Positions 29,596-57,040 of a stretch of DNA of 64,000 nucleotides are shown here, piece after piece. The stretch is from Lingula anatina (lineage: Eukaryota > Animalia > Brachiopoda), in contig CM120641.1 in the NCBI GenBank assembly GCA_051362555.1, positions 31,192,401-31,256,400 on the forward strand, given 5' to 3'. Positions within the stretch are counted from its first letter, which is position 1. Every line of letters begins with the position of its first letter. The translations under genes and the position numbers were made by a program. The notes below the pieces were generated by a model that was not told the DNA's origin, did not search any database, and saw only the letters and a list, made by a program, of their open reading frames with translations.

Positions 29596-31435
29596 TATAA
29601 ACCTCGTTGGAAATATCGAAAACCACCAAGTTACAGGTTTGGTCAGTGCTCAAAAATTTTATATGTTCAAAAATGAATGTCAAACTATGGAAAAACCTGA
29701 ACAGACAAAGGAAAAAGCCCATCTACATTTGGCACAATTCAAAAACACAGTTACAATGCCGCTTTGTGTGCAGCCATTTTGGAAGACGAATGTAACTTCA
29801 GAAAATACTCAGTGAAATTGATACACGAACATTCCTTTGGGGTATAAGATGTAACTGAAGCATATGCTGTATCGTCTTTTTGAATTTATTAGTATATAAA
29901 TCAACTGGTCATTGTATAAACATATGTACATCTTACCTGTCTCAATGCCTTCTTCTCCCACCATTTTTTCTTAGAGCTATCCGCTCCCTTTTTGAAAACA
30001 AGGCCAAATCTAATATTTTCCTAAGTAACTGTCATATGAGCCACTGGCTCCCGGGCTATACTAAAACTGCATTTCATTTCAAACAAAAAATACTTGCAAT
30101 AATTGCTTCCTTCCATGTTTCCCTTCACTGTTTGGAGATTGTTAAAGAGAAATCAACTAAAAATCCACAGAAGTGTTTCTAAACACTCGAATTACAAAAA
30201 TGCTCAACAGAAGACTGTACCCAAGTGGTATAAAAAATAATCAATTTGAATAGGATGCCATCTACATCTTCACTACAGTACCAATGTGTGTTAAATAGTG
30301 CAAACTGCCATTTCATACTTTACCCAGGAAATGACAAAGAAAACAACCATCAATATGTTCCTTTCAATGATAACTATTCTAAGTTTATTCATTACTGCAA
30401 GCAAAAAAAAACAAACAAAAAAACAGAAAAAGGCTTTGTAAAAGACTAAATTATGCAATGTAAACAATAAACAAACTTTATGATCAAGATATATATTGGT
30501 CTATATGAGCATCACAATATTAAGTGAACTGTTCATTGTTCATATATATATACTAGTATATGTCATAGAGGCAAACTGCCCACATACGATCACAAAAGAT
30601 ATGAAGAGCTGTACACTGTGGCCATCAGGATCACTCAGTTTCACACTTAAGTACAGATTCATATTTAAGAGTACATGAGGAAAATTTTATTTCAATCAAA
30701 ACCAGGCTGCATGAAAACTACCAAGAGCTAATAAGTTGATGTGTTTTTTTACAAATACATAATCTACATTTCATTGGAGGAATGTAAACAGGAATATTAA
30801 CAGTATAGTATAAACAGTATATCGCTTCTGGTACTGTCTGGTACCATTTATGATTCAGATGAAGAAATGCCTTTAATAATTTTGTTCTCAGTTGAAAATG
30901 CATACTACATATTAAATATTAATTTAAAACCATTTGTAATTTTTTCACTGCACTCTCTATTGACGGATTGCCTGCAGTTAAGTTAGGTGGAAAGGATAAC
31001 ACGTGGCTTTGTTTGCTGGCTGCTGCTGTCAGGTAGCAGGCCTGTAGCCAGGGGGGTTCAGGGGTTCGAAAGAACTGCCCTTTTTGTCAGAAAAAAGTCC
31101 ATTCTGGGATACTCTGCCACAGGTGTACTGGTAAGACATCTACATGTAGACATGAATCACTGGATGACATGAATCACTAATTAATCCTGAATGACAGGTC
31201 TATACCAGTTCTCTTGCTGCCTTGTAACCACTCCCTGAAAAATGCACAACAGATAAAACTGATTTTAATAAAATGTGAAACAACCAAAAGGTTCAGGCTA
31301 TTGAGAGTTCAAGTACACACTTTGAAAATGCCAGAATAAGAAAAATGAAAATATTTCAAAAATATTATAAATTTAATGAAAAAAAGATAATCCTATAGAA
31401 CTGGTTTTCTAATTTGAGCATCACAGGATAACCAA

Positions 31436-31565
31436 GGCTGCAAGCAGCATGGCAGGACAACAGAGACGGCCAAAACATGGCAAGACAAGTGTGACTGCCA
31501 GCATCATGGCAGGACAACTGAAACTTCCAGAACATAGCGGGACAACTGAGACTGCTAGCTGGATG
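31436..31565. repeat. Short diverged patch of the 28/30-bp satellite found at 52550-56720
   Basis: catggcaggacaac..gagactgc units. Confidence 0.8.
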
Positions 31566-31629
31566 GCTTCAATGGCAGCCATTGTAATCCTTTCAGAATA
31601 GGAGTTATATGATGTGCACTATTGCACTT

Positions 31630-31979
31630 TATTTGACAAACCAGTTTTGCAGCCGAGTTTTGAATAACTTGTAATTAATTTTTTTTAATCTGATAGTCAC
31701 ATGTACCAAAGAGGAGACTTGCAGTAATCTTATCTTGATGATTTTTTTTAATGTATTTACTAATTTTTCAGTGGTTCTGTTATAAAACACTTTTCTTACT
31801 TTTCCAATGTGCATAAGATGCTGATTTACACATTCAGATACATGCTTCCCCACACAGTGCCATTTTCATTGAGGGTAACTACCAGATCTTTTACAGAACT
31901 AGATGGTTTTATAAGAACATCTATGCAAATGTTGGCATTTGCTGCATTTTTCCTATTTGCTTTGAACCTTGATGTAAAC
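31630..31979 (-). pseudogene. L2/CR1-like LINE reverse transcriptase relic, 3' part (5' part at 52296-52480)
   Basis: Degenerate KPSSSVKDLVVTL and HLMHIGKVRK..TEKLVN motifs typical of the RT C-terminal region. Contiguity with 52296 is shown by the uninterrupted paralog at 56874-57040. Confidence 0.6.
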
Positions 31980-32474
31980 TACCCTCTACCAGGGCACAGT
32001 ATTCATTCTAGGAATGTTTCAATATGGGACAAAGGGCCCCTATCATAAAAAGAAGTGGGTCATTACATTTTGAAGTGGGCCCTTTTTCAAATCTTTAAAT
32101 AATAATATGTAACACGTGTTTTACTGCTGTGGTTTTAATATTCAGAGATGAAAAATACTTTATATCATAAAAATAATATTTTGACTTGCAGGTTCACATT
32201 CAATAGGTTATCCCAACTTTCTAAAATAAGAGACTTCATGCTCGAAATTTTGTTTACAAATATAAGATTACACTGAAATATGTTGATGATTCTTTCACCA
32301 ATAACCAAAATCTTACTAAAACAAGATTTTAAAACCATTTTTGGCTTCAATTTATAAAAAAAACCATGAAATTTAATTAATTATATAAGGTTGAGATAGC
32401 ACATAAAAAGCTACCAGATTGAATGATATCACAAACATAAAAATCACTAAGAGAATCTGTCCCTTTTTTGATAC

Positions 32475-32999
32475 CTACAAAGAATGTATCGGAAGGATGA
32501 GGGAGATTGCAGCCAGCTTCAACAAATTGGGAAAGTCTTCACTATGGTGTGTTTTGATAATGCTCCACAGTTTGCAGGTGGCATCTCTTGCATACCCCAT
32601 TCTGAAAACCAATTCTTTGAGTTTAGACCATTCACTCATACCTTGTTTTTCAATTATTATTGGCACTGATCTGGACCCATGATGTTCAATAATGTTACCA
32701 TAATGGCTAGCAAGTTTCTGTATAGGGACTTCACCCCAATTTTCTCTTTCTGACTCAGACAAAAAGCTTAGTGGTCTCATGCTCAAATACCCAAATGCTG
32801 TTACCATATCCAAGTGTTCCTGGGGAAATCTGGCATTTATGTTGTTAATGAGATTGTCAATAAATTGACACTGAATTGCCTTGCATTGTTTTTCATAATT
32901 AGGACAACAAGTCAGAAGGTGGTCCCTGAAGAATTTACGTTGACCTGTTCCCACCTTCAGGAGAAATTCCTCGATGTAGCTGCCAGGTTTACCAGACAA
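32475..32999 (-). pseudogene. hAT-A transposase, 3' part (ZNF862-like), ending just before the catalytic Glu motif
   Basis: FIDNLINNINARFP..EWSKLK..FPNLLKLAAISLILPIHSL*; joins 49574 in frame once hAT-B is removed. Confidence 0.88.
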
Positions 33000-33375
33000 C
33001 AGAGATGCCTACCTAAAAATGTTAAAATCAGGACTTTTGGTAAAATTTTCAGTATTTTCTAATAACTTTCAGTAACACAAATCCAATTAATCAACACCTT
33101 ATTTAAATCATTAAATGTTATTAAGCACTACCTTATTTTTTTATTTTTCCTTATTTATGAAAAAACAATGAATGAAATGGTAAAAAGTTTAGGATAACCA
33201 TTATTTATTTCATCAGAATTTATTGATACACAATTTTATTATTCACAGATTAAATTCATTGTATGATTTAACAAATTACACATTCACTGTAAAAAGTTGT
33301 TAATAAAACCACAGCTTTAATTATAGTTCGTCCAACCTGTCACTTCGTTTATCAATTGGTAACTTTTTTAAGATA

Positions 33376-33534
33376 AACTAGAGGATCAGAGAGGCGATAC
33401 CGCCTCTGGATATTGTACCACCAGCTGGAGTAAGCTCATTTGTATGGAAAACCGAAAAAAAAAAGGGACACCACTACCAGTCTTGTGCTTGACAAGCTCT
33501 ATAAAATGCAATAAACTAGAATTCTCAAAATATG

Positions 33535-33611
<77 letters not shown>

Positions 33612-35148
33612 TGTAAAAATGGTCCTATCAATTTTCGAATTGACCTGTATTTTCCTCTCATTGATCATTCCGGTGATTTTCTAGACAAAAGGCCTATTTG
33701 TTTTCCTCGAAATGTATTATCAGTGTTGCATATTTGCTGATAAAAAAGAAAACCAAGAGGCAACACTGGGTATATCTCTGCTAGTTTTGAAGATATGAGG
33801 GGCAAGAAAATATGCAAAGTTTAGTTCATGGTGAAAAAGAAGGTCATAAAAAGTAAGTCAAAGGTCAATTTCAAGGCCACAGTCAGATTGCCAGTATATG
33901 CTTTCCTACTTAAGTTCAATAGCAACTATGAGCCTACCTCTGTCAGTTTTCCGAGATATAAGGGTGACAAAATTTACCAGGTTCAATTCATGGTGAAAAG
34001 TAGGTCAAAGGTCAATTTCAAGGTCACAGTAAGATTGCCAGTATATGACTTCCTACTCAAGTTCAACAGTAACTATGGGCGTATCTCTGATAGTTTTAGA
34101 GATATAAGGTCTGGAAAATTTGCAAAGTTTAGTTCATGGTGAAAATTAGGTCAAAGGTCAAATTCAGGATCACATAAAATTGCCAGTTTATGACTTCCTA
34201 TTCAAGTTCAATAGTAGCTATGGGCGAATCTTTGCCAGTTTTGGAGATATAAAGATCAGAAAACTTGCAAAGTGCAGTTCATCATGAAAAGTAGGTAAAA
34301 GGTCAATTTCAAGGTCACAGTCAGATTACCAGTATACGATTTCCTATTCAAGTTCAATAGTAACTATGGGCATATCTGTGCTAAAAAAACACTGAATATC
34401 TGATATTGAACTTTTTGATATAATGCAACGCCTAAGCCGAATTGAAAAAGGAAAAATGGGCACCACTTTCTGTGTTGCACTTGATAAGCTCTACAAAATG
34501 CAAAACACAAGAGGTCTCTAGCATTAACGGTTCCAGAATTACAGAAAGTTTTCTGTTTCGCATCTAATGGCCGCTACTCCGATGAAAATGCACCGATTGA
34601 CCCCAAACTCAAAAAGATGAAAGATGACCCAAAGGGTAACAACTACCCATAATATTATAGGTTAGATCTGTGTAGTTTCTGAAAATCAGCAGAAATAAAA
34701 AAATTTTCGCAAAAAAAATTAAGATTTTTAGAAAATCTTGGCCAGGTTGACCTCGAAATAAAGTCTAAAGTCAAATCCAAGGGCATATTTGGAATCTTCA
34801 CATATGACTTTCGGTCAGACTTCTGTAGTAATTTTTCCCATAATTTCTTCGATTTGGGAGATATTTGGCATTGAATTTTCAAAAATTTTGACAAGGGTGT
34901 GTTTCAACGAGCGTCATGCCCAGACCAATGCACTGACTGAGACAAAAAGAACAGGGGGTTCAAGTTGAGATTATATGTGACCTAAATCCAAGAGATGGGT
35001 ACATGGGTCCTTGCAGTCTAGGAGGAGAAGCAGTAATGGTGACTTGTATCCAGCGCCAGTACGCGGAGCCGCAGGAGCCGGCAGAGCCGTACGAGACGGT
35101 CGGGACTAAAATCATGAGTACCGCCAGCGTACACGCTGGTGGTACTAA
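33376..35148 (-). mobile_element. Helentron-type non-autonomous element (HINE family 2), complete copy
   Basis: 5' hairpin agtaccgccagcgt-ac-acgctggtggtact (35117-35146); 3' subTIR gtaccaccagc (33415-33425), stem-loop agaggcg-atac-cgcctct and CTAG-TTT terminus; internal tandem repeats of about 146 bp and (TA)n. Confidence 0.8.
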
Positions 35149-36479
35149 ATATGGCACTTACAATATTACTAGACCTTTTATACAAAAAAGGTATTAGTAT
35201 ATGAAAAGCACAAATTAAAAACCTACCATCCATTGACTGAACGGAGCATCCAAGTACTTCTAAGCGCAATTCAGGTCTCCCATTCCAGGCCAGAAGATGT
35301 ATACTTATGGCATCTGCTATGAATGGTGGGTGCATATACTGTGTAACCAGCCCATTCCAATCAGTGTTTCCGGACAGCTGAAATATTTTACTCAAGGTGA
35401 GGAATATGCAAATCAGTTGTTCTTAATGTTCAACAGTAAGATACCCAGACACTGTAATATATTTCAGATATACACTTATGCACTGTAATTTCGTGAAAAC
35501 ACACACACACTTAACAAGGTAACTATAGTAGCTTTCAAAAACAACACAAACTTATATGGCAATATATACATTTTTTATGAGTCTCAGAATAGATGTTATA
35601 AAAGTACAAATGTCATTGTTACATGTCTCTCCATACCTCCAGAGTTCCATTGGAAGAATAGTTGTGCCACCCCTTTTCATCATTGTAGGTAACTCTGTAC
35701 TGCGTTATCCAGTTTGTTGAAGTGGACTGTGTGGTATAACCCCCTAAGAGCAGAGAAAATTTATGTTTTTAGCTTTCTATGCATCTCATCTCCTCTCCAC
35801 TATCCCGTCCTCCCATCCTTACCTCCTGCTCTCTCTCTCTCTCTCTCTCTCTCTCATCCTCACTTCCTCAAATTAAAGCACAAACTACCCTTCCGAAATT
35901 GTCTCACCAACAGCACAAAAGTTAATCAACTTAATACCAGTTATCAAAAACACATTACTGTTACCCTACCTTGTGTGACAATCCCAGTTACAATACGCCT
36001 GGTATTAAAGGTGAGCTTGACCCAGGGGGCACTATCAGAAGTATTTGGAGCCCATGCACCTTCATCATAAAGACTGGAAAAGTATATCAGAAACCATTTA
36101 TGAAAACCCGTTTCCATGTATGTTCTGTAAAAAATCCATACAATTTGTAGGAAATTGATTAAGATCTACATGTAAAAAATTAATTTCTAGATTTGCAATA
36201 AGATTTAGCCAGAAAGAAAGGGGGGTGGGGATTCCACTGCTAAGTCTGAAGATGTATGTTTGCATTTACTACAAACACACACACAAAAGAAAAACACACA
36301 CACACATGCATATTTGTGTGTGTGATATATGTAAACGAATCTTACTGTATGTTTTGTTTTTGAAAGTTTGCTTCTGCTGCTTCTGATGACACTTCTACTT
36401 GACTGGATGACAACAGAGACTCACTGCAGGGTTCTAATTCAAATAAAGGTAAATTAGGAAAATCAAGGTCTGTCTTCGA

Positions 36480-36731
36480 CCCCTTTCACATACACACTAT
36501 TGGTCTACATAGACCAATACATTTCTATGGGATTGCTTAAATAGTGCAATCAGCTTAACTGAGTGACATGCCTCCTCTTCTTTCCAACGTTCTATAATCA
36601 CCAGCATTTCTGTATTCTTCTCAGTGCCAGGAGGCCTGTCATTCAGTTAAGCTGATTGCACTCAGCTAGAGTCCCCACAGAGTTGGATAGATCTACCTAA
36701 GACTAGACCAAAGGTGTGTATGGGCAAGGGA
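36480..36731. mobile_element. Palindromic MITE in a cargo intron
   Basis: catacac..ttggtcta / tagaccaa..gtgtatg ends; inner IR tgcaatcagcttaactga / tcagttaagctgattgca. Confidence 0.65.
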
Positions 36732-39700
36732 CTTTACAGATTATACTGATGATAAATTTAGGCCAATACATAATTTCTAAAATGACATACTCCAATCTAA
36801 ACATTATGATATCATTTAACAAAGTTATATAGACTTTATATTCAGTTGGCAGCCATCACAAAGTTAAAAAATATATTTCAAGCATGTTATTATCATGTTC
36901 CACACATACCCATGAAGCATTCCACCCTCAAAGAAAACTCTTTCCCATCAGGGCGTATCCAGTATTTACCAGGTAGAAACACACCTTGACTTTTTAGAGA
37001 TTCACAAGATAACGCTTGGAAGTGATATATCGCTAGGGTAATGAAAAAATATAACACCAATACAATAATATTGCTACCTGAATAATCTTATGAATGTTAA
37101 TTAGTCGTTTACCTGTTCCTTTGAAAAACACCTAAGTATGATTAATGATTAAAAAATAAGTGTGACCAGTTCAGTTGAGTTAAATTTAGACACATTTCAT
37201 TTTTTTTACCACATAAACAAAGGAAAATAATTCCTTCTTATCCTTCTTAAACTTAAGGTATCTGCCATCAATACTTACGGCCTATAAACAAAAGGGCATG
37301 ATTGGCACCACCACAGTTTTCCAGGGAATTCCCAGTGCATGTCTGCTCACACATCATTTCATCTGCTTTTGTTAAATCATTATAGTTCGTTCTACAATAG
37401 CAGTGAGTGAGGGACACAGCAACTATATGGTAATCAAGTCCCCGGCAGTACTCTATACACTGTAATGCTGACATGTGTTTATCACTGGTTACTTCTGCTT
37501 TCGAGGTTGTTGGTTTCTGGTAGCATCCCAGGTATCCTTGAAAATAAAGAACAATGCATTAATATCCGAAACCTATATTTATGGTAGCGTCATTCTGACA
37601 AGGAGCATATAACAAAGTAAAATCTTGACAAAAGGATTAATATTGTGTAAATTTGATATGTAGTTTTAAGGATATTTAAGGACCTTTCCTGCATCTGATA
37701 ATTCAGTAATGCATCTATCTTTGTGCTGATTTAAAAAAAAAATACTTGAAAATATAAAATATTGGCATTTATATTTCTCATTGCATTGTATAAGCATAGG
37801 CAACTCAAAGATTTAATCTTCCATTTAACACATATCTATTTTGAGGTGAGATAGCACTCGGTATGGGGCGTAACTTCATCTCGAAACAAGATTTTATCAC
37901 TAAAATTGGTAGAGTTGACCACAAGTGTATAGGTTACAATCCTGTGCATCACTTAAGTTCAAATGTTTTTGTTATGGAGTTATGAGCCCCTAATTACAGA
38001 TTTTCATTTAACAAGGGCATTATTTTGCTTTATCAACGATAAAATCTGAACTAAGACTTTTAAGAAAAATTGCTGGCAGGGTTTGGAGTACTAAATGGTG
38101 TCATTAAATCAGCATTGAAATGGTGACCATGAGTGCTCAGGTAAAAGAAAAATTTAAGAAACTGATTTTTCAGTTTTTACCCCAAAATCACAACTATGAC
38201 GTCGCCTGTAAGATGTGTAAATGTCAATTAATCTAGTCACTGAACACTGAAGATTATATATTACACAAAAAGAATGTATGTAAGGCAGTAAATAAGGAGT
38301 TTTGGGGAAAGGGTGACAATATCCTTTAAACCCTGTGTGTACGTGTGTGTGTGTAAAATCAAAAAAATCTTTATTTGTTTTAATCTATATTTTTTTAATT
38401 GATGAAGTTTAATCTAAATATTATAAACTGATTGCTTATTTTTTCCATAAAAACTCACCATAATTCTTTTGACAGATAAAAGAGGAGGCTGAGTCATTAA
38501 AATCCTGCAGTAAATATCCAATACCCTGTGACATAACCATGAATTGGCTCCAAACATCAGATGGTTCATTGGTATCCATGATACCTGTAACATCTACGAA
38601 GGAGCCATCAACACTGCGATAAACATTTAAAGAATATGGATCATATAAGCCAACCAGCCATTTTGAAATTGATGAGTACTGTGGTAATGTGGAGAGGACA
38701 TTCTGAAGATGACTCTTTATGCCAGTGTCTGCTGGCACAGCTATGTAGCCACCATCTTCCAAACATTTCCTTCTGGCTTCAGATGGAGAAACTTCTGTTG
38801 AATTGATGATAAAGCAGTTGCCCCAGTACCCATAACCCCAAGGACTGCTGCATTGTGTTTTATCTGCCAGGTCTGGAGAGAAAAAAAAATGTAATTCACT
38901 ACAATAAACAGTTGCCTTAAATCTTACCAGGCAAAACATATATACAAATATCTCTGCAATACTATGGACAACTATGTACCAAGAAGAGAATTTTGTTCAC
39001 TACAGTGCTTTTTTTTACCATATCATCAAAACAGTTTTTGCCATTTCATACATCTTATTTGAATAGTTTCTCTTAATTCCGAGGTTCTGATAAAAAAAAA
39101 GGGTGACACTCAAATTTAAGTCTCTAAATGATTGACATACATGCACATGTTGGTGGATATCCATCCCAAGTAAAGTTTGCCTGGCATGTGAGTCTTAGAG
39201 ATCCATTGACAACATCGTAGCCTTGGAAACAACCATATGTGACATCCCCTCCTATCTGATATCCCCCCACTGTTTTTGTGGCATTTACCCCCTCACCGGG
39301 GTCACTACATCCTAGAGTATATCATCAAAATATTCCATACATAATGTCCCTTATGGAGGTTATAAAATATTGTAAATCATAATATCTTAAACATTTACAT
39401 ACATGAAATACTTAGAACTTGTTAGGAAATGTTTGTTTAACTTAAAGGGGATAATTATTCCTAAACAAAATTTCAGTTTCAACTATAAGAATTAAGATAT
39501 TTCCCTTACGGTCACACTCCAATGGTGCCCCTCCTGTCCACTGTCCAGTCACTCCACAGGTAAAGCTTATATTCCCTGCACTCTGTGAATAACCAGCATC
39601 ACAAGTGTACTGAACCTCCTCTGAGTTCCTATAGTGGGTTTTCACTGGGCTGTAGGAGGCCATGGTACCATTGGGCGGAGGTGTGCAGCCTGAAAAGAGC

Positions 39701-41230
39701 ATTAATTGCCAGTTGTTTTAAACGATTACACAGGTCTTTTCAAAGATGCTAAACATTCTCAGTTTAACTAGTATGCGTATATATATATGTTTTAAGTTCT
39801 GTTACTAATGTTGAAACTTATGGGGAATGAATTAAAAGAGACAGGAGTAAAAATCAACAGAAATGTTTTCAGGTTTGTATAAAGAAACTGGTTCTGTAAA
39901 TAGAAAAATATATGCTCCAAATATTTTCCCCCTGAGATGTTTTGTTCACAACCAACATACCGCAGGCTGCATTTGTTATTGTTATATCATCAATAGCAAT
40001 AGAGCTGTCATCCACCATGGCACCTGATGTTTTTATTCCTTCAAATATGACCTGAAATCAAGACAGATATTAGTGACAACAATCTACACTATGTTCTGAT
40101 GCCAATCACGTGATCCAAGGAGGATATTTGATAGACGCGATATATTAATTTCATCACCATAACAAAATTTCAACATTGTGAATTATTAATTGTCAAAATT
40201 CACCATATCAAGCTGGTTTAATCTGATCGCTCTCTTACTTGGAACCTCTCCGTAGTGTTTATGAGGACATCCACATGTCTCCACTGATCTTGACTACTGC
40301 CGTCATGACTCCATGCTGTATATATCTGGCTGCTGCCATTTATCTGGTATTTCACATTGAACGTCACCAAATGAGATCCAAATGCATAGTACTCAAAGCT
40401 TACAGTGGCCTGGCAGTGTTCCTGGGAAATGTTTATCCATGGGGATCTTATCCTTGCTGTGGCTTGTGAAGAAGCAGTCTGCCAAATTGAATTGTTAACA
40501 TATTTATTCCAACCAGTACAGAATTTTAACTTACTTTATTTTTTTATGATTATGATTGTCTCAAAATACATAAAATCATTTAAGAGCTTGTATCATCACT
40601 TGAGAAGGAATGCATCACATCAGAGGTACGTTTTTCAAAGATGTTATGCTGCCCTCCCCCTTATGCCTGCCCCTCCCCCCCCCCCCCCCCCCCCCCCCCC
40701 TCAGATCCCCAGCAAATACATTACCAGAGAGGTAGTACATGTACCTGATATCTGGGTTCCAGCAGGTAGTAGAATCCATCATTCCCTGTGTGGTCTGCCT
40801 GTGGCCCAGTGCTACTCCTCCCTGGAGCTTCTCTCTTATAAAGAGTCCACTCCAACTCTTCATCTTTATCTTGTGTGAACCCACAGTTATCACTGTCAAA
40901 TTGAAAGGACGCTGGGGTGGACACAACTGAAATGAAAGACCATAAAAGATGATGTGAAAATAACTGATCATGATCACTGATAGGCATGACTTCCTTGAAT
41001 TCACTTTGCTTATGCAAAAGGTGCAAGGTGACTGATCTGGACCTCCCAAGGCAAGAGAGTGGTTTGCCTTCATTTGTTTTCAACCTCAGACTATGTGAGT
41101 TATTATTATTCATGGTTTGGGCTTTTGATAATTGCCAGACAATCATCTTTAAAAAATTACTGAAATATAACACATAAACATAATCTTTGTCAATAAAGGA
41201 AGACTATATATACCAATAAATACATATACA

Positions 41231-41388
41231 GGGGGCATCTCAATAGTCCAAAGGCTCACTGGTCCAAAAAATCGTAGCATTATCATCAGTTTTTTAATCA
41301 AGGGTTCGTTGGTCCGAAGGATCTATAGTGAACATTCGGACCAATGAACCTTCGGACTATTAAACCTTCGAACTATTGCCACAGCCCC
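41231..41388. mobile_element. Small MITE with internal ggtccgaagg/ccttcggac repeats
   Basis: gggg..caatagtcc / gaactattg..cccc ends. Confidence 0.5.
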
Positions 41389-43335
41389 CACATACATATT
41401 CATGTCCAGCTTCATGTTTTGTGGCAATTAAGGCAACAATGCAGGTGTTTAAACACCCCTTCACTTTGAGGATCAAGATAATTTAAAATCTGCACAAAAA
41501 TAGGTCATAGAAAGATTTAAGCTAAAATATTAAGGAACACATTTAAATAAACTAATTAAAGGCTCTAACAACTTTACTCAGTACACACACAAACACAGCA
41601 AGAAAATTACAATATGCTGTACTTTAGCATACCTTCTATACAGTTGCCAGGCACCTGAATCACTCTGATACCATCAATAGCTATATCTCCACCAGTTCCA
41701 GATCCAGCAATACCATTAAACTGAATCTACAAAAAGAATGTGTATGTTTAGTTTTACATGAACCTATTGTAATACAATTAATTTACAAGAAGTTTGGTAT
41801 CTAATCAGGAGGGAACATAAAACATTGTTCTATATACATGTATCAAGCAATGAAAGAAATATATACACATTCAAGGGGATGAAAAAATATTTTGCTTGTT
41901 TTTAATAATATGAAGGTTTAGAATATCTATATAAGCAAATAAGAAAAATTTAATTTCAGTCAGTTTCTTAACTATTTTGTTTTGTTTCATAAATAGGATC
42001 ACTCTATTTGCAAAAGCACTAAGGCTGTGAAAGTTTACAAAAAAAAAAAAAATTAAATGGATATGGACAGGAGATCAAATGGATTCTGGAACATATATAT
42101 TTGACAAACATTAGCCAGACAAACAAGTTTCCAGACAGAGAGACATACAGATGGAAATACAAGACAGACAGGCAGACAAACATACTTTAAAATGAATAAT
42201 TCCAGATGGTTGTAGGATCCATGTATATTCCTTCCATGCATTCTGGACCTCATTTAGATGGAAAAGTTTCATATTCCGGTTGAAAGTCGACTGCCCAGAT
42301 TCTTTTTCAAGTAATATTACAGTCAGTGCATTGACATCACCACCATAGATGTGTGCCCAGAATCTCAAAGTCACTAATCCACACTGATGAACCTCAAGAT
42401 CTGGAGTCTCCAAAGCAGCTATGGCACCATTTGACTAAAAGTTGGATTAGTACATATTATGTATCTTTAATAAATCAGCTATATTGTAGAATTTTCTCCT
42501 AACTTGTATTACATGAAGCAAATCGATGCCAGTTCCAGACTAGAAACGCAGCCAACATCTAGATTTTCTAAGAAATTTTTTATCTCATATTAATGCATAA
42601 TAAATTTGGTACAATCTACATACTTGACCATCTACTTCAATATACAAGTAATGTCCTATGCCTTCTTTTGTTATAGGGTCAGCAGAAGGTCCAGTGCTTG
42701 CAGTAGGAGTGGATCCGCTCTTCAAAGTCCAGTCAAACTGATCTGATGTGAGCTGATTAAAGTTGCAAATGGTGGAGTTCTCAAAGTCACAGCTGGTTTC
42801 GTATGGTAGACCTGCAGATGGTGGGGCAGAGATGTTAGACAACAATAAAATAAAGCAATCAAATGTATTCAAAATAAAAAAAAAAAAAACAATTTCCCAT
42901 CCTACCTCGTAGTACAGTGAAAAGGTGATTTACCGACAAGCATCGATTATTATAATATTTCTAATGGAAAAACTTTTGTAAATCAAAACCTTAAGTTTAC
43001 GTGCTATTATTATTATTCCATACTAATATCTAAACAGACTGAATTCTTTACCACTATTATCATCTCCTTTCACTTGTATTTCACACAGATTCATAATTTC
43101 GTTGTTTCCTTCTATCTGAATGGAGACATATCTGCCCGCTAGTGGACTGGCACAGTTAAAAGTGTCAGTGGCTCCCCCTGCAGGCCATGTTCCAGTATAG
43201 TTAGAACACCAGATCCAAGTACTAGAGTCATGTCCTCTGTCGATGTCAAACTCATCACTCACAGATATTACGAAGTCATGAAGACGGTCATCTGGAACAG
43301 TTTTTGTCAGGTGAGATACTATATGAGTTCATGAC

Positions 43336-43336
<1 letters not shown>

Positions 43337-43390
<54 letters not shown>
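43337..43390. repeat. (AAT)n microsatellite
   Basis: Directly visible. Confidence 0.95.
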
Positions 43391-43391
<1 letters not shown>

Positions 43392-44785
43392 TTTTAGGGT
43401 GATGGAGTGTTAAATCAGTAATAATATTTGTAACCCTACCAGCAGGTCCAAATATTTTTCAATATTTTTAATAGTCTAAGATCACAATTTGAATTCTCAA
43501 AACCTTTAATGTTTTACATGTTCTAAAAAAAGGGATCCTTGCAACATATTCAAAATCATGCTTTGCTTTCCTTTTAAGCAAATTGGTATGTGCATAGTTC
43601 AACTTACTGCAGCAGTCCCCTCTCCCTGTAATAGTTACAGTGGTAATAAAGGTGTATCTCTGAAGATCTACTACAAACCAAGGATCTGTCATAGCATTAG
43701 ATTCCCAGCAGGATTTATGTGAATAAATCGGATCTTGGTTTCCGTCTAAAACTTGATATGGTGAAACTGCATTTGTGCTACCAGCATACGCCTCTTTTCC
43801 AAAAGCAAGGTTTTCACCTGAAATTAAGTCTATAACAGTGCATATTGTACTTTAAACTGTATCCTAAGTACTGTACAGCATCATCACCACAAAATATGCT
43901 TCGAAAATGTTGCAATTTGTGTTATAAATACATTTAATTTGATTGAAATTAATATGTACTAGATTATTTACATTTGTTGTATCTTTAGTATAGTTTTTAA
44001 AAATATTTTTGCTTTTTTCTCTATGTTGTGATGCAAGAATATGACAATCATTGAGCTTCTCTTAATTAAAATATATACCCAATGCAATCTGCAAGAGATA
44101 TTACATGTATCAATATTAAAAGACTGAATGGAATGCAACATTTATGAAATCTCTGAAAAAGAAGATGAAACCATAGCAGAAAAGATTTATGTTAATTTTT
44201 GGGCACTATTTTGTTTCACTACAGAGTTATATCAAGCAACTTAATGCCTCCTCTGACCAGTAATAATTTCAGATTTTCAAATCCCTCACTTTTTGTAACA
44301 TTCTAATCTACCATTTCTAATATTTTCAGACACTAGTATCATTGTACTTTCAAGTTTCAATTATTTTTTCAAAGATTTTTATGTCAAAATATCTATGGAA
44401 TTCTTTATTTTTTATATATACTTACAGTTCATCTGGGTTAAAATGTTCACATCATCTATGGCATAATCAGACTCATGATCATTTCCCCTCTGAGCTTCAA
44501 AAACAATCTGAAATTTGAAGAATATGGCATAATTTAAATTCTATGGTGACAGTGCATGTATCATTCTTCATATGTGACTTTGAGGATTTGATTTAGTCTG
44601 ACAAACATTCACAAAGTAAATAAAGCAATAAATCTATATTACTATAAATATATACTACATCATGGACTTTGAGTAAAGATACATAATTATAATTTTCAGC
44701 ATCATACCTGAAACTTGACATTTTTAAGAGGTAACAGTAATAACTCGTGCTCTAGCTCCATTGGGCTAAAAACAAAGACCAATGA

Positions 44786-46089
44786 AACTAGACAATAGGC
44801 CTATTGGTTTTCCTTGAAATGTGTTATCAGTGTTGCATATATGCTGACAAAAGAGAAAACGTAAGGGCAACACTGAGCATATCTCTGCTAGTTTTGAAGA
44901 TATGAGGGGCAAGAAAATATGCAAAGGTCAGTTCATGGTATATGATTTCCTATTCAAGTTAAATAGTAACTATGGGTATCTCCTTGCTAATTTTGGAGAT
45001 AAAGAGGCCAGAAAACATGCAAAGTATAGTTCATCATAAAAAGTAGGTCAAAGGTTAATTTCAAGGTCACAGTTAGATTGCCAGTATATGACTTCCTGTT
45101 CAGGTTCAATAGTAACTATGGGTGTATCTCTGCCAGTTTTCGAGATATAAGGGAGATAATTTTTGCAAAGTTCAGTTCATGGTGAAAAGTAGGTCAAAGG
45201 TCAATTTCAAGGTCACAGTTAGATTATCAGTATATGACTTCCTATTCAAGTTCAATAGTAACTAAGGGCTTATCTCTGCTAATTTTTGAGTAATTCACAT
45301 TTTATTTTCACTACTGAATTTTGGATGTTGAACTTTTTGATTAGTGCAATGCCTAAGCCGTATCAAAAACAAAAAAAATGGACACCACCCCCAGTGCTGC
45401 CCTTGACAAGTTCTACAAAATGCAAAAAACAAGAGGTCTCTAGCATTAACGGTTCCAGAATTAGAGAGAATTTTCAGTTTCGGCATCTAATGGCCGCTAC
45501 TACCATGAAAATGCACCGATTGACCCCAAACTCACGAAAATGAAAGATTACCCTAAGGGTAACACCTGCCCATAATATTATAGGAAAGATATGTTTCGTT
45601 TCTAAATATCGGCTGAAATAAAAATTTTCTCGCAAAAAATTCCCATTTTTAGAAAATTTTGGCCTGTTTGACCTTGAAATAAAGGTCAAAGGTCAAATCC
45701 AAGGGCATATTTGAAATCCTCACATATGACTTTTGGTCAGCCATCTGTTGTAATTTTTCCCATAATTCCATCGGTTTGGGAGATATTTAGCATTGAATTT
45801 TCAAAATTTTTGACAAGGGTGCATTTCAACGAGCGTCACGCCCAGGTCAATGCACCAACTGAGACAAAAAAACCTGGGGGTTCAAGTTGAGATTATATGT
45901 GACCTAAATCCAAGAGATGGGGACACAGGTCCTTGCGGTCTAGGAGGAGAAGCGGTAACGGTGACTCGTATCCCACGTCATCCTGCGGAGCCGCAGGAGC
46001 CGCAGGAGCCGGCGGAGCCGGCGGAGCTGTACGAGACGGGTCGGGACTAAAACCATGAGTACCGCCAGCGTACACGCTGGTGGTACTAA
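44786..46089 (-). mobile_element. HINE family 2, second copy, lacking its 3' terminus
   Basis: Same 5' hairpin (46058-46087) and body as 33376-35148. Similarity stops at ctagac (equivalent to 33681), so about 305 bp carrying the subTIR and stem-loop are absent. Confidence 0.82.
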
Positions 46090-46267
46090 TGATTTACTAT
46101 AGAAAATTAAGTTAAAGATTTTCTACAAGACAATTCATAGAATGAAATATTTGCAAAGTCTAAATGTGTAGAAATTAAATTGTCCTGTGCTAGCAACTGT
46201 ATGATGCACTAGTTTCTAAAACTAAAGCATGATCACACTCCTAGAGGTTTCCCTATTGTTTATTTCT

Positions 46268-49200
46268 CTACACATGCTTACTGAGTGATTCAACATAACA
46301 GGATTTAAGGCTATCTAGTTGTTTCCTGGTGTAACTCCTGGCCCCAGCATTCCCTGATCTTGATTTGTTTATCAAAATAGCCTCCAGGGTTTGAGAGCTC
46401 ATGTTAGGCCTGAATGCAGTGTGAGTTTTTCTGACCATGCTGAAAACTCTTTCACAGTGTGCACTGGAGTGTGGGATGGTTAGGATCCTTAACATGAACT
46501 TGGGCAGAACTTGAAACATCTGCACACCATTCTCATCTTTCATCTGTCCCATTTCTGCCCATGCTTCATCCAGCCGATCCTTCTTGATATCCCTGATGTC
46601 AGTTACCTGATATAGAGCAAACTCGCTTTCCAGTTTCCCTCTCTCCTCTTCTGGTATCAGGCATGGGAACTTCTTCAGAAAGAACTGTACTGATGACTGA
46701 TAGCTTTCAGTCTGCCGCTGCATGTCTGTGACTTCTGCATGTTTCAGCAATTCACATGAAAGAGGCAGCTTCTGTTTAATGTATGAACAGGCTGTTGAGA
46801 AGAATGATTTCACATTCTTGTGGAATTCCTGAATTCGCTTATCCCTCAGGTGGTTGTCTTTCTTCTGAGAAAGAAATGCTTTTGCCTCATCTCCAATGAG
46901 CAGATCATTTTCAGCCTTAATGTTGCTGGATACAGTGAACTGCACATCAAGGACACCCTTGTAAATCATAGCTGACGGTTTGACGAACATTACTAAGAGT
47001 TCTTTGAGCAGACTGTGCAGGCGTCTACGCAGAACATGGATCTTTGGTTCAGCACACTGCAGCTCTGTGTTATATTTATCAAAAACAGCTATGGCATGCT
47101 TCAAAAATAAACAATACAATCTGTTTGTTGGTGACTTGAAGAATGCCTTCATTCGGTCAAGACGATCAGCTTGCTTTGAGCTTGTTGAAGAACTTTCCTC
47201 TCTAATGAATTGGAGAAGCGGATCCCAGTTCTCAAGAACTCTGTTAAGGCATCTTGAAACACTTAACCAGCGGGTGCACACATGTTTCAGCATGTCAGCA
47301 TCTTTTAGCTCGTGAAGCACCTGCATTGCTTTGAGCGAAGATTTTCGTAGTGAACTCTTGTCTAGGTAATAGTAGACATCCACAAGAATCTGATCAATGC
47401 TGAATGGAAGGCAATGAGCAGCTGCAAATAACATTGAATAACATTTGTTAGGACAAACTCAATGAATATTGAATAAAACAATACTGATACCATATAATCA
47501 AACAATATTTAAATTCAAATTAAAATACATTTTCAAAGACATTTTTGCTTATTTCAATAATGAATTCAAATACCATTTTCAGCTGCATGGTGAATCAGAT
47601 GACACGCGCAGCCAGACAGATAAATGGAAGGGTGAACTGTAAGCATATGTCCATACACTCCATTCTTCTTCCCGACCATCACATTGGCATTATCAGACCC
47701 TAGTGCTATACAATTTGTCCAGGGAATGTGTTCATCTTGAAACACTTTGTCAATCAGATCAAATATGGCCTTCCCTACAATAACAACAAAAATATAAAAA
47801 TCAATGTGATTTACAAGTAACTCATAATGCAACACAGAATCATAACATTTGCATTGGTTTTAATAAAAGTATTATAAACTAAAGCAGTTAAAGGGACACA
47901 AAAGAGGATTCTCCCGCCAACACTAACATCAAACGAATTTTCCCAAGGTAAACGGCATTTTTCCACCTTTTATCATCCTTTTCTAACACTCGCCATACTT
48001 ATGTAACAATTTTGGAAAAAGGTGAAATATCCAAACCTGTGCTTAAGCGCGGGTTTGTCTTGATGGCTGACTACATAGGCTGAATAGGGGACGGTGAATA
48101 TAGCTGTTTTGCGATATTGTTTAAGGCCATCTATCTTTGAATTTATGTTTTAAACGTTTTTATTGTACTCATGTAAGTTCAACAAGAAGCGATTCATGTC
48201 TTTACATTGCGATCAAAATCCTATTTTGTGTCCCTTTAATATTTTAACTTAATCTCAACAAATAATGCTACTATGAAATCATATTGAATAAGAAAATAAA
48301 AAACAAAATAAAAAATACACACCATCATGCATCAATGATCAGTCAGCAGGCAGAACGATTGTTAAAAAAAAAACTGAACATGAACAATCTCTGAAAACAA
48401 AACAAAAGAAAATATATTCTCTTCACAATTGATGAACAAACTTGACTGGGTTGAAAGTGTTAGTATATGAATAAAATACATGCATATATTCCCCACAAAA
48501 AGTAATTGTAATATATTATTAGCGAAGTTTTAAAATTCCATTCACTACTAATGTGCGTGTGTGTGTTTGTATATTCACATGTATTGCAATAAAATATTAT
48601 TATTTCATATAAAAATTTCAGCTTTACCTGTTGCTGATCCTTTACAAGTCGGCACACTCAGCACGTCTGATCTGACCTCAGAAGTTTGTGGATCGACGCA
48701 TCTAATCACAAGAGGGAATAGTTTCTCCGTATCGTTGCTACCATCTGTCGATATGGTAAAAGGGTTGTCTTTGATTATGTCGATCAAACGTTTCTGGGTA
48801 TGCTGGGCATTTTTCTGTACAATTGCCGTTGTTTTTGAGCGCCCGCATGCAAACGATTTGGCGATTTCAGAGTCACTGAACTTGGTTTTACATATGGCTG
48901 TTATTTTGTCCATAATTGAAAATGGGAGATTTTGTTCCACACAGAGATCGACGAAGGCAACCTCCGCATCAATCACATTATATTTCAGTTGAGTCGTCTT
49001 TTGTAAGAACTTGCTCATGTTTGAGCTGACTGCGGCCTTCGCCAACTTGGCATATTCAGCGTGTTTCTTCGACTGCACATGTCGGCGGCAGTCATCCCGG
49101 CCACCGTGCGCGATGGAAATGTCCACGCGGCACACTTCGCAATACGTATGACAACTGCCTTGTTTGCTTGCCTTTAAGCAAGGCCACTGTAATGTGTAGC

Positions 49201-49270
49201 TGGGGATAAAGTTTTGGCTCCGTTTCTTCGCGCTTTTGTCATTTTCTTCGCCTTTACGCTTCTCCGCCAT
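46268..49270 (-). CDS. hAT-B transposase, 3 exons, 665 aa, apparently intact
   Basis: Exons 48628-49270, 47574-47774 and 46268-47421 (643+201+1154 = 1998 nt, phases 1/1). Zn finger CEVC..H....H, STDGSND, GSDNANVM, CACH, TRWLS and SSAHCERVFS motifs. Confidence 0.9.
47892..48235. mobile_element. Kolobok-like MITE in intron 1 of the hAT-B transposase
   Basis: ttaa|agggacacaaaagaggatt ... aatcctattttgtgtccct|ttaa: TTAA TSD with AG..CT termini. Confidence 0.8.
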
Positions 49271-49567
49271 TTCTGACAACACGTGTGTAGCAGAATGAAA
49301 CGAAACTGGTGATCTTTTCAATACGCATGCGTCAGTCCCTACATAGGTTACTTACACTAGACATGATTGGATAGTTAGATACGACACTTCCGCTATTTGT
49401 ATTGTGGACTCTACTTACTACGGTATAAACAAAAACAAACAATTCAATCAATGGTTATATTAAATATACCCCAATAAAACGTACTTCAAAACTATTCTTC
49501 CGTAACATCGTATTTTATTGTCAAATCCGTACAAAATACGGCCAAATCGTAACGATAGGCATCTCTG

Positions 49568-51493
49568 AGACAACCCTTCACTACTTGTGGCATGGTCCCT
49601 GTGCTTTTGCAGTTCTCTCAATGCATGCTTCACATTAACATCCACCAAGGCTGGGTCAAGATCTTTCTTTTGGAAGAGTAAACATAGCTCTGTGACAATG
49701 CTGAGGATGGACAAAAGCATATGGGTGACAAAAACAAAACTGAATTGTGAAAGTTTCTTTGCAAAACCTTTTGCCTTGGCATCACTTGCCCCCATTTCAG
49801 ACATATAGGACACTAATGACCCATAAGTCCTGTAAATTGTTTTTATTGCTTTGTAGTAGGGCAACCATCGAACCTCATGGACTTCATTGCACTTTAAAAT
49901 AGGTTCATCCAGCAGCTCCTGAATAGCTGTGATTCTGTTTACCCTGACAGATGATGCTTTAAAGTAATAAAATATACTGGTAATAGTTGATTGATAGTCC
50001 TTCATATAGTCTATAGCATTTGCTGCCTGGCTAGTACATAAAGCCAATCTGTGGGCAATACAGTGTATGTGAACCATCGCAGGATTTTCAGCAAGCAGTC
50101 TGCCTGCAACTCCATTTCCCATGCTGGTCATGCTCGCTGCACCATCAGAACCAAAACCATATATCTTACTTAAGGGGATCTCCTTTGATTTAAGATAGTC
50201 TTTGATAGCTGCTGCAACTGTGGCACCCTTGCCATCTGTGACATTTATGTCGGCTACAAAGTGGGTAGAAGGAACAAAGTTATCATCTAAAAGTCTGACA
50301 CATATAACCAACTTTTTTGTTACTGTTATATCAGTGCTCTCGTCTGCTAGTATTGTTAGAAATGGTGAAGACTTCATTTTCTGAAGCAAGTCTTCCTCAA
50401 CTGTGGCAGCAATAGCAACAACCATATCCCACCCTGCTGTATCAGAATTATACTTTGCATTGTCTCCTTGGTCTAAGTATGAAAGGTTGGGGCAATCCAG
50501 GTGCTGTAGCAACTCTATTAGGCTTCCAAACTTTCAAATTGCTATGCCCTCTTGAACTAGCCAGTACACGGACTTCATTGATGTCATGATTGCTCCATCT
50601 TTACCTAAAAATGTTTTATAAACGTTACTTTAAATTTGAATTTGGACATTATAACCTGCATAAAATGTTAAATAGTGTTGAAGGTACCTGCAAACATTAC
50701 TCCAGCACACAATCCCTTACTTTATTTTTCCCTTAATCACCATGAACAGAGACCAAATCTCTCGACACACTAAAATTATGAAAAATGAATGTGAAAATTT
50801 TATCTATATATATACAAAAAATAATGTTCAGGGAAAAAACATGAGCGTAACGCCCTGTGTCAATGCTACGCAGCAAACGCATTGTTTACATAGTTGTTCA
50901 GCATTGCGATATCCCAGAATGCACTTTCGAGAGTTCTTCAACCTACACAAATATAACTACAACACGTGGGTCCGGGACCGTCACGATAATCAACAACGTA
51001 CACTAGTGTCACTTTGCTGGCTCATGCTCCGTGTTACAAATAAATATTGACAAAAAATAATATCTTACCTTCTAAAGCTCTGCAAAAAGCCTGTTTAGCT
51101 TGAGCTGATTCCGACGTTTCTTGTATGGCAAGCTTGTGGTCTTTAGATGTCTCATGGTGCACAAGGATACTGGTTCGAAAGTTATTAGTCCCTTGAAATA
51201 ATATATTGTCCTTCTTTTTTTCAACACATCAGCTGCAATACATCAAGTTTGCGTTATTGTCTTATACAAGCCACTTGTAAGTATGACCTTCAAGTTGCAT
51301 TTCTAGTTGACACGGTATCAGAAGTCATGACAGCAGCACATACATCTACTTTAGCTCTCTTCTCCGGTGGAAATGTCTGCTGTGTATGATCATTGTCTCC
51401 GTCGCTACTATTCTGATCCGTTTTAGGGTGATCTTTGGGATCAACTTTCTTAAAAAAACTTAAAATAACACTTAGCTTCTTCTCCGCCATCAT
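49568..51493 (-). pseudogene. hAT-A transposase, 5' part (ZNF862-like)
   Basis: Exon 51069-51493 (disrupted Zn-finger region) and exon from 50604 with an in-frame stop. Motifs ILADESTD, GFGSDGAASM, HCIAHRLAL and EVRWL. Confidence 0.9.
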
Positions 51494-52295
51494 GTACAAT
51501 GTACGTGTTGATCAATTGATTTACATGGACAATTAATCTCAGCCTATCAGGGATTCAAGAAAGGAGGGGTGATCGCCACTGATTTCCATAAAAAGCATGA
51601 CATCAGCATAAATTAAGATATTTGTTAAAAACTGCGACGAGCAAAGAATATCTTCATTACGTCGAACATAAGATCTTGATGTCAAGAGATGTCGAGTAAA
51701 CAATCAAACTTTGGTCGTGAATTTGCCGAATTGGAGGGCGCGTTTAGAACACAAAAATGCGCCACTGTTAATTCTCTTGAATTTTGTTGGCGCAGCTCAC
51801 TCTAGGAATTGCGTCAACCTAATTTTTTCTGCGCCAATGACGCAAGGGCGCATCCTAGAATGAACACTGAGGTCAACAGATTGATTTTCCACAGATATTC
51901 ACAGATACGTCTCTAGATAAGTAGACAATCATTTTGGTCTGATGTCACCCTGTACTGAAATCTCAAGGATGATTACATGGCTTGTAAATGTTTGCATAAC
52001 TACTCAGGCATGGTCACTTAGCGAGTCCCTGCAAAGTCCCCTTGACAGTAATCAAGATAGTGAATTTCTCATCTGTGACAATAAAACAGCCCTTTAACAG
52101 ACAGACAAGACAAGGCAGGTTGCATAACAAGTGTTAATCATATTGGCGCAAAGCCCAGCTCTCATTGAGGTCCTGCAGAGCAAGTACAAAGCCTTCTGCC
52201 TGCGTGCAGAATTAATTGTTTCCTCCTGGCCAAACATAACAGGGTCGCCTCAGCAAATATGTCCACAACAATAACTGCGGCCCTGGGCGAGGGTA

Positions 52296-52480
52296 GATGT
52301 AAACCATATCAACTCGACCTTAGTATCATTTAAAGCCAACATGTTCACTTTCATCCATTACTCGAAAACTCTGCAAGACAATCCTCCATAGGAGTGATTG
52401 TTGCAGACTGGTTGCTCTTGCATGTAACATAAACTTGTATGTCAGCTGCTAAAATGACAGTGTTCAGACCATGTTAAAGT
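52296..52480 (-). pseudogene. L2/CR1-like LINE RT relic, 5' part
   Basis: The minus strand reads LAADIQVYV (degenerate YADDTQLY) followed by MEDCLAE. Confidence 0.55.
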
Positions 52481-52549
52481 ATGATATTTTCTACAGGTTA
52501 CATGTATAATAATGAGAATAGGATTGGACTTAACACAGCATCAAGGGAG

Positions 52550-55500: not shown

Positions 55501-56720
55501 TGGCAGGACAACCAATGTCTGCCAGCTACATGGCAAGACAACTGAGACTGCCAGAACATGGCAGGACAACCGAGACTGCCAGAACATGGCAGGACCACGT
55601 GGACTGCCAGTTTCATGGCAGGTCAGCCGAACCTGCCATCAGAATGACAGGACAGCTGAATCTGCGAGAACGCTGGCAGGACAACCAATGTCTGCCAGCT
55701 ACATGGCAAGACAACTGAGACTGCCAGAACATGGCAGGACAACCGAGACTGCCAGAACATGGCAGGACCACGTAGACTGCCAGTTTCATGGCAGGTCAGC
55801 CGAATCTGCGAGAACGCTGGCAGGACAACCAATGTCTGCCAGCTACATGGCAAGACAACTGAGACTGCCAGAACATGGCAGGACAACCGAGACTGCCAGA
55901 ACATGGCAGGACCACGTAGACTGCCAGTTTCATGGCAGGACAGCCGAACCTGCCATCAGAATGACAGGACAGCCGAATCTGCGAGAACGCTGGCAGGACA
56001 ACCATGTCTGCCAGCTATATGGCAAGACAACTGAGACTGCCAGTTTCATGGCAGGTCAGCCGAGACTGCCAGAACATGGCAGGACCACCAAAACTGCCAG
56101 TTTCATGGCAGGACAGCCGACCTGCCATCAGAATGACAGGACAGCCGAATCTGCAAGAACGCTGGCAGGACAACCAATGTCTGCCAGCTACATGGCAAGA
56201 CAACTGAGACTGCCAGAACATGGCAGGACCACGTAGACTGCCAGTTTCATGGCAGGACAGCCGACCTGCCATCAGAATGACAGGACAGCCGAATCTGCAA
56301 GAACGCTGGCAGGACAACCAATGTCTGCCAGCTACATGGCAAGACAACTGAGACTGCCAGTTTCATGGCAGGACAGCCGAACCTGCCATCAGAATGACAG
56401 GTCAGCCGAATCTGCGAGAACTCTGGTAGGACAACCAATGTATTCCAGCTACATGGCAGGACCACATAGACTGCCAGTTTCATGGCAGGACAGCCAAACC
56501 TGCCATCAGAATGACAGGACAGTTGAATCTGTGAGAACTCTGGCAGGACAACCAAGTCTGCCAGCATCATGACTGGACAACCGAGACTGCCAACATGTCA
56601 GGACAACTGAGACTGCCAGAACATGGCAGGACAACGGAGACTGACATCAGAATAGCAGGACAACCCAATCTGCCAGCTACATGGCTGGACAACCAAGTCT
56701 GACAGCATCATGGCAGTCTG
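52550..56720. repeat. Satellite array: 28-bp monomers, 30-bp monomers, then a 173-bp higher-order repeat
   Basis: 28-mer gagactgccagaacatggcaggaccacc (about 52615-52895); 30-mer with ctgccaatgtcatggcagg (about 52895-53520); 173-bp period shown by ORF starts 54375, 54548, 54721, 54894, 55067, 55240, 55413, 55586, 55759. Confidence 0.97.
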
Positions 56721-56873
56721 GATCTGAACCCTAGATCTTTCATGGAGCATATATCCTATTTCCTGGAAATTCAGTAGCCGGGAGTCCCTGAAAGTAAAAG
56801 AAGAAAATCAGATGAAAAAAAAAACTATTTCATAAAGCAATGTGCAGATCATTACAACATCATATTTTAGCAT

Positions 56874-57040
56874 TCTTTTACAGAACTAGATGGTTTTATA
56901 AGAACATCTCCTATGCAATGTTGGCATTTGCTGCATTTTTCCTATTTGCCTTGAACATTGATGTAAACCATATCAACTAAGTCATACTATCATTTAAAGC
57001 CAACATGTTCACTTTCATCCATTCTCGAAAACTCTGCAAG
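56874..57040. repeat. Uninterrupted duplicate of the LINE segment 31888-31979 + 52305-52378
   Basis: Single gatgtaaac at 56960-56968; flanked by direct repeats of about 30 bp (agatcattacaacatc.tatttt.gcatt). Confidence 0.88.

Follow-up and report, generated by a model that had tools for sequence, protein, structure and literature searches.

A 64,000-nucleotide window of the genome of the brachiopod Lingula anatina (GenBank assembly GCA_051362555.1, contig CM120641.1, positions 31,192,401 to 31,256,400 of the forward strand) holds a 12.7-kb unit in which 19 host-gene exons lie between two copies of one rolling-circle repeat, and which forms a clean insertion within an intact cut-and-paste transposon (referred to as hAT-B). 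Both ends of the unit are termini of one HINE family, i.e., of non-autonomous Helentron (HLE2) elements. Since the 5′ end of the upstream copy (HINE1) as well as the 3′ end of the downstream copy (HINE2) serve as outer termini, the arrangement is that of a composite capture, and we consider it fairly probable that the unit arose by one composite rolling-circle transduction from a gene allele that carried both HINEs. The features concerned are the following (positions are those of the window):

33376..46089, minus strand: whole inserted unit, net 12,712 bp, with two A/T end letters assignable to either side (joint 33375 to 46088)
44788..46089, minus strand: upstream HINE (HINE1), with 5′ TT and hairpin (46058-46087), 2.4 central 146-bp repeats, and an end at an internal CTAG (44788-44791) before TTT
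44793..44806, no strand: palindrome near the HINE1 end, 14 bp, perfect, 1 nt before the internal CTAG
35149..44787, minus strand: cargo, a 9,639-bp genomic piece, introns included, from a MAM / F5-8C / Sushi / C-type-lectin-like / WSC gene, corresponding to aa 722-1858 of protein P0001
44708..44765, minus strand: first cargo exon (MAM), 58 nt left of ~240, with an internal deletion of ~182 nt and a shifted frame
35227..44507, minus strand: 18 exons in frame, 3,172 nt in total, with AG/GT ends throughout and without stops
33378..35148 (start at 33376/8 in the self-comparison), minus strand: downstream complete HINE (HINE2), with 5′ TT and hairpin (35117-35146), 3.6 central 145-bp repeats and (AT)n
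33415-33425, 33390-33407 and 33378-33381, minus strand: HINE2 3′ end, i.e., subterminal inverted repeat (subTIR), stem-loop and CTAG, respectively, then TTT
33000..49567, minus strand: hAT-B, with terminal inverted repeats (TIRs) of 12 bp plus a perfect 6-bp target site duplication (TSD; 32994-32999 and 49568-49573); 3,856 bp without the insert
46268..49270, minus strand: hAT-B transposase, three in-frame exons, 665 codons plus stop, with a hAT dimerisation domain (PF05699, E-value 3.7e-08)

The two HINE copies

Comparison of the window with itself revealed that HINE1 and HINE2 share the same (minus-strand) orientation and are 83% alike over 1,157 columns (665 of 754 letters being identical in the 5′ unique part and 139 of 151 in the shared 3′ part), with no identical run longer than 48 nt. 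Both copies start with TT and an identical 30-nt hairpin, the stability of which was equalled by none of 200 shuffles (z of –5.3 and –5.0), and both show a HINE feature in having an inverted repeat or palindrome that lies with the subTIR at the 5′ end. The 11-nt subTIR motif itself occurred five times in the 64 kb, a number reached in 0 of 100 shuffles, and every occurrence was located at a HINE end: two at each HINE 5′ end, one at the HINE2 3′ end and none at the HINE1 3′ end. In HINEs, the subterminal inverted repeats measure 11-15 bp, with the 3′ one ~38-60 bp from the end, and the stem-loop is placed 8-35 bp from the 3′ end. HINE2 carries these repeats as a perfect 11-bp pair, located 37 nt from its CTAG end, as well as the HINE-type stem-loop (7-bp stem, 8 nt before CTAG-TTT and 12 nt from the CTAG end). 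The whole 79-nt 3′ region gave a z of –2.1, with 5 of 200 shuffles as stable.

HINE1, in contrast, is without the final 303 bp, including the 3′ subTIR and the stem-loop, and its homology to HINE2 stops exactly after an internal CTAG that is followed by TTT. Since the complete copy contains only six CTAG motifs in 1,771 nt, a random cut would rarely coincide with one of them, which suggests that HINE1 is an early-terminated copy that may have been inserted as such at an intronic T run, rather than a deleted copy. The 14-bp palindrome preceding this CTAG is a possible cryptic stop signal, of which the surrounding region folds no better than shuffles (z of –0.51, with 61 of 200 shuffles as stable); a hairpin near the 3′ end of the cargo folded no better than shuffles either.

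An earlier reading of the same letters (referred to as the original prediction) had claimed that the cargo is tightly bracketed by two diverged HINE copies of the same orientation, that the upstream one retains the 5′ hairpin while missing the 3′ subTIR and stem-loop, and that the downstream one supplies the subTIR, the stem-loop and the CTAG-TTT end, all of which is borne out. Its designation of HINE1 as terminator-less holds in so far as no terminator is present, but needs amending in that the copy ends exactly at an internal CTAG-TTT and looks early-terminated instead of deleted.

The cargo and its parent gene

The cargo contains 19 exons on the minus strand, 18 of which are in frame and one of which is broken. 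A full HMMER search with one cargo exon (95% identity) yielded the parent protein P0001, a Lingula anatina protein of 2,574 aa, for which the source gives the name MAM and LDL-receptor class A domain protein; the parent gene corresponds to the locus of XP_013395916.1. Across the 17 exons scored, 972 of 1,005 residues (96.7%) were identical between cargo and P0001, and the rest of P0001 had no other high-identity match in the window except for a repeated module mapping to the same last three cargo exons. The cargo is an internal, promoterless gene piece, and the duplicate is most likely a non-functional fragment, because it lacks an own promoter and start and its first exon is broken.

In this first exon, the donor and the acceptor (the latter at 22 nt from HINE1) are nevertheless preserved, and HINE2 follows 78 nt after the donor of the last cargo exon. 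Given the intact AG acceptor next to HINE1 and the intronic flank after the last donor, both HINEs are intronic relative to the gene. The possibility that HINE1 cuts into an exon was considered and rejected in view of this true exon acceptor inside the cargo. The exon could be resolved only with P0001, as alignment of the window's own MAM exons to 44508-44787 yielded nothing above shuffles. No match was obtained for the C-type-lectin-like exon in a word-index search over proteins of 241-2,000 aa (vs. 2,574 aa for the parent), and a 20-mer metagenome scan gave no exact match and is uninformative, the motif spanning the cargo's own deletion.

Some further features of the cargo and its parent were observed. 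P0001 contains a near-identical repeated F5/8C-WSC module (aa ~1737-1960 and 2042-2265), which is either a real tandem duplication or the result of two haplotypes having been assembled one after the other. Small high-depth repeats are situated in the cargo introns at 36480-36730, 37576-38400 and 41220-41390, two of them with inverted ends. One distant match (L001, 40%) from a further metagenome scan was not used.

The empty site in hAT-B

Contigs of four DNA runs (X1-X4) were aligned to window positions 31600-51500. Among the joints listed, a joint from 33375 to 46088 was found in three of the four runs (X2, X3 and X4, from three studies; not X1), in contigs of 625-725 nt with two mismatched letters and a 4-base gap. 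Because this joint skips 12,712 bp, with two letters compatible with both sides, cargo-free hAT-B copies exist and no bases were lost from hAT-B at the site, which is a run of three T (minus strand) located 180 nt past the transposase stop codon, at a distance of 376 nt from the TIR. An insertion between T and T without a TSD has been described for HINE/HLE2 elements (in the consulted parts of PMC4067079 and PMC11417382), and T runs were indeed found at the empty sites in both hAT-B and the gene intron.

The original prediction of one 12.7-kb unit inserted in hAT-B thus gains an exact empty site, at a net length of 12,712 instead of 12,714 bp, and the cargo-free join it had foreseen was recovered, albeit with three rather than four A at the empty site. 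Of its claim that the unit sits in an A/T run without TSD, the T-run target stands, whereas the lack of a TSD, with T borne by the element, is indistinguishable at this single hAT-B site from a 2-bp TT duplication.

Origin of the unit

For the composite transduction, an early-terminated HINE and a complete HINE would first have been inserted in the same orientation into introns 9.6 kb apart in one allele of the MAM gene. A Helentron Rep/helicase acting in trans would then have started at the 5′ end of the upstream copy, met no subTIR or stem-loop, and run through the 19 exons until copying stopped at the 3′ end of the downstream HINE, after which the copy would have entered a hAT-B element in its 3′ non-coding part. 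We favour this model because it agrees with the polarity, with outer ends that are exact HINE termini, with a T|T target and with the location of HINE2 on an intronic T run. Specifically, the terminator-less copy is the upstream one, as read-through requires, and the cargo keeps its introns and its close identity to the parent protein. For Helraiser (HLE1), deletion of the hairpin was reported to increase capture from ~12% to at least 36%, with internally truncated ends next to T (PMC4778049, as far as consulted).

The presence of HINE2 in the gene was addressed by aligning three DNA runs (X2, X3 and X4) and RNA run X12 to 35129-35488, including 20 bases of HINE2; this comparison covers three samples, the contigs of which show presence and not absence. 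The junction from gene into HINE2 was crossed by one of the 11 X2 contigs (113 nt, one mismatched letter, depth of 79 vs. 272 on the exon); X2 possibly stems from the window's own project, so that this contig is not independent support. In X4, two contigs match the intron as far as 35146 and then continue with other letters, which places the HINE2 empty site at a T run in a continuous intron. Divergence at 35184 and 35197 was seen for other HINE-free intron types, some of which run at least 255 letters further, and the gene thus continues past the inner HINE2 end. This inner end falls on a TTT run, while TTT starts at 4.6% of the cargo positions. In X2, the HINE2-bearing type had about the depth of one other type, and it was unseen in X3 and X4; depth is only a hint of copy number, as a near-identical repeated module of P0001 overlies the last cargo exons. 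RNA run X12 had no reads on 35129-35488 with ~6% of the run read, which is no measure of expression.

Several of these and other observations weigh against the composite origin. None of the seven X3 contigs and none of the 12 X4 contigs crossed from the gene into HINE2, and HINE-free intron types (which may be alleles, modules or paralogues) numbered two in X2, two in X3 and four in X4. The crossing X2 contig may stem from the duplicate or from a donor allele, and the joints listed did not resolve the upstream junction of the unit, or its two outer ones, in other samples. The inner junction has 3-4 letters common to HINE and intron and is also compatible with a template switch. Moreover, no Rep/helicase ORF (open reading frame) was recognised among the 17 of 88 window ORFs that were scanned, nor an autonomous Helentron partner in the window, and our literature search found no bypass experiment for HLE2, the experimental proof being limited to HLE1.

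The sampled gene copies are thus mostly without HINE2, and we infer a donor allele with two HINEs; an upstream HINE at the parental locus is suggested by the CTAG-TTT signature. The absence of HINE2 from these copies weakens the composite model without killing it, because unfixed donor insertions are expected: among the bat parents of Helitron captures, the expected Helitron was missing in 26 and represented by its 3′ end in 3, with a further 20 parents being poorly assembled (PMC4224331). With regard to the original prediction, which had placed two intronic HINEs in the donor gene, the intronic placement agrees with it, as does the location of HINE2 at a T run without an insertion in other gene copies, but a two-HINE allele was not identified. 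A parental gene lacking these HINEs, which it had named as counter-evidence, was found in part, namely for HINE2 in the X3 and X4 contigs and the other X2 types.

That all identified parental types are HINE2-free is also what would be expected if HINE2 had already resided in hAT-B, and if a donor with HINE1 only had read through the gene, ended without a proper terminator and landed at the T-rich 5′ end of HINE2. The 3-4 letters common to both sides of the inner junction suit such a two-step history, and Helitrons inserted directly beside one another have been reported (PMC4778049 and PMC4067079, in the parts consulted). However, no CTAG marks the cargo end (the nearest being ~20 nt inside), which instead falls on a T run typical of HINE targets, and two rare events at one base would be required, so we regard this history as improbable. 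A hAT-B with only HINE2 was absent among the joints listed, which is no test.

A similarly low probability is assigned to homology-guided repair or ectopic recombination, in which a break in a single HINE resident in hAT-B would have been repaired from the gene via HINE homology, so that the stretch flanked by two donor HINEs was copied without a transposase. Such a route would explain the exact outer HINE ends as well, and related events have been proposed for DNAREP1-flanked Drosophila duplicates (PMC2211543, parts consulted) and, as gap filling, for most single-copy Pack-TIRs (PMC8277862, likewise). It is, however, less economical in needing a resident HINE plus the same two donor HINEs, and it would leave the missing terminator on the upstream copy to coincidence. 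Furthermore, no identical run exceeding 48 nt connects the HINEs (although the lost parts of a resident are beyond comparison), and hAT-B shows no gap at the site.

Finally, the unit could be an assembly artefact caused by a jump between a HINE in hAT-B and the HINEs in the gene, given that neither the outer junctions nor the unit as a whole are covered by any contig among the joints listed, and that the HINE family is very abundant in the DNA runs. We deem this very improbable, since the inner junction is present in the X2 contigs, and repeats of 1.3-1.8 kb that are 83-88% alike form a poor basis for a misjoin. In addition, three intron types of similar depth in X2 vs. two in X3 are what an extra copy would give, with depth again serving as a hint.

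Two side observations concern the last cargo intron. At 35155-35200, a short inverted-repeat piece is inverted in some X2, X3 and X4 gene copies (loose ends at 35197, 35155 and 35188). At 35219, all aligned contigs of the four runs, including the HINE2-bearing one, have C vs. A in the window, which is either a private change or an assembly error.

The hAT elements around the unit

The hAT-B element is itself nested in another hAT-like element:

31997..51869, minus strand: hAT-A, outer hAT-like element with an ORF split by hAT-B; DUF4371; 6-bp flanking repeat with 5/6 letters alike

A joint from 32993 to 49568, which removes hAT-B from hAT-A, was found in all four DNA runs, and cargo-free hAT-B is the form found in three. 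Because contigs of all four runs match hAT-A and hAT-B at ~99% or more, both families appear to be young. With its TIRs, TSD and hAT transposase, hAT-B has the features of the hAT superfamily, the TSD measuring 6 bp as in hAT6 and not the usual 8. By its description (hAT dimerisation domain, short TIRs and 6-bp TSD), rather than by phylogeny, hAT-B resembles the hAT6 group (PMC12730594, as far as consulted). Six-bp flanking repeats as in hAT6 surround both nested elements (perfect for hAT-B and 5/6 for hAT-A). A 4-bp length variant at 33317 splits the hAT-B copies; the window form is in the minority in X2 and X3 and unseen in X4, and the variant could tag the cargo-bearing hAT-B lineage.

The original prediction had further posited a relay from rolling-circle to cut-and-paste mobility. 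In such a relay, 19 exons would have been brought into an active hAT by the HINE pair, and the resulting 16.6-kb hAT would then have jumped with its cargo. The order of capture first and jump into hAT-A second is compatible with the intact TIRs, the perfect TSD and the open 665-codon transposase, and hAT-B looks able to move. No support for the relay was obtained: one site is known for the cargo-bearing hAT-B, and no sign of a second site or of amplification was seen, in short contigs that cannot link the cargo to other flanks. We hold the relay to be improbable. If true, large gene pieces supplied almost intact by rolling-circle capture would be spread further by cut-and-paste mobility.

Comparison with known systems

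The HINE family of the unit resembles DINE-1-like HLE2 elements (Thomas et al. 2014, PMC4067079) and the oyster Cg_HINE (PMC7492417), as described in the consulted parts, in their subTIRs, 5′ inverted repeat, ~145-bp central tandem repeats, microsatellite, 3′ stem-loop and T|T target, and the HINE description in PMC11417382 (same proviso) matches too. The microsatellite is located near the 3′ end here vs. in the left flank in Cg_HINE (PMC7492417). For DINE-1-linked duplicates, end bypass or composite transposition has been proposed, while the authors of the same source found few gene fragments in HINEs (PMC4067079), as opposed to the 9.6-kb cargo with 19 exons and an exact empty site found here.

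The unit also parallels the composite Helitron capture modelled by Tempel et al. (2007) and exemplified by HelibatN539 in bats, in which one copy's 5′ end and another's 3′ end carry the intervening host DNA (PMC4224331). In those bat cases as well, parents often lacked a Helitron (26 cases); unlike here, however, the elements were HLE1, and both ends of HelibatN539 were found at the parent. Since the composite model has already been published for Helitrons and proposed for HINEs, the unit is a clean example of a known route. Among the mostly open-access literature searched, no HINE composite with an empty site and this cargo size was found, nor a Helitron-to-hAT relay.

DNAREP1-associated duplicates in Drosophila share with the present case a HINE-type repeat at the breakpoints of dispersed duplicates (at all four in one pair), and their authors favoured ectopic recombination (PMC2211543, consulted in part), whereas the complete termini, the polarity and the empty site point to transposition here. 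Animal Pack-TIRs likewise combine a TIR transposon with a duplicated host piece, but have a median cargo of 224 bp obtained by gap filling or fork switching, vs. 9.6 kb delivered between HINE ends; multicopy Pack-TIRs moved again (PMC8277862, consulted in part), while one site is known for the cargo-bearing hAT-B. The reverse nesting, i.e., hAT elements inside Helitrons, has been described as chimeras without sign of moving (PMC5148889, in the parts consulted).

For duplicates flanked by DINE-1/HINE elements, rolling-circle transposition vs. ectopic recombination has so far been argued without a clean case. The present one is young and apparently polymorphic; its termini are exact, its polarity is the right one, and it has an empty site. 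It also shows that, in a brachiopod-type genome, a duplication of 9.6 kb and 19 exons can lie between short HINEs that are non-autonomous.

Other features of the window

Another repeat family, with ~337-bp and 161-bp tandem units, is located at 10345-12547 and 60280-61284; it is without the HINE subTIR motif and has a short stretch that is 72-87% like HINE near its internal CTAG. The regions 17549-19224 and 8600-9610 hold a 1.7-kb element with ~700-bp inverted arms, and decayed ORFs that resemble a Tc1-type transposase. The ORF at 2465-3145 has a strong DUF6729 match (E-value 1e-56). A GC-rich compound minisatellite (28, 29, 145 and 173-bp units) extends over 52500-57050, with a short related piece left of hAT-A at 31416-31567, and flanking pieces at 31887-31979 and 52296-52378 recur at 56874-57041.

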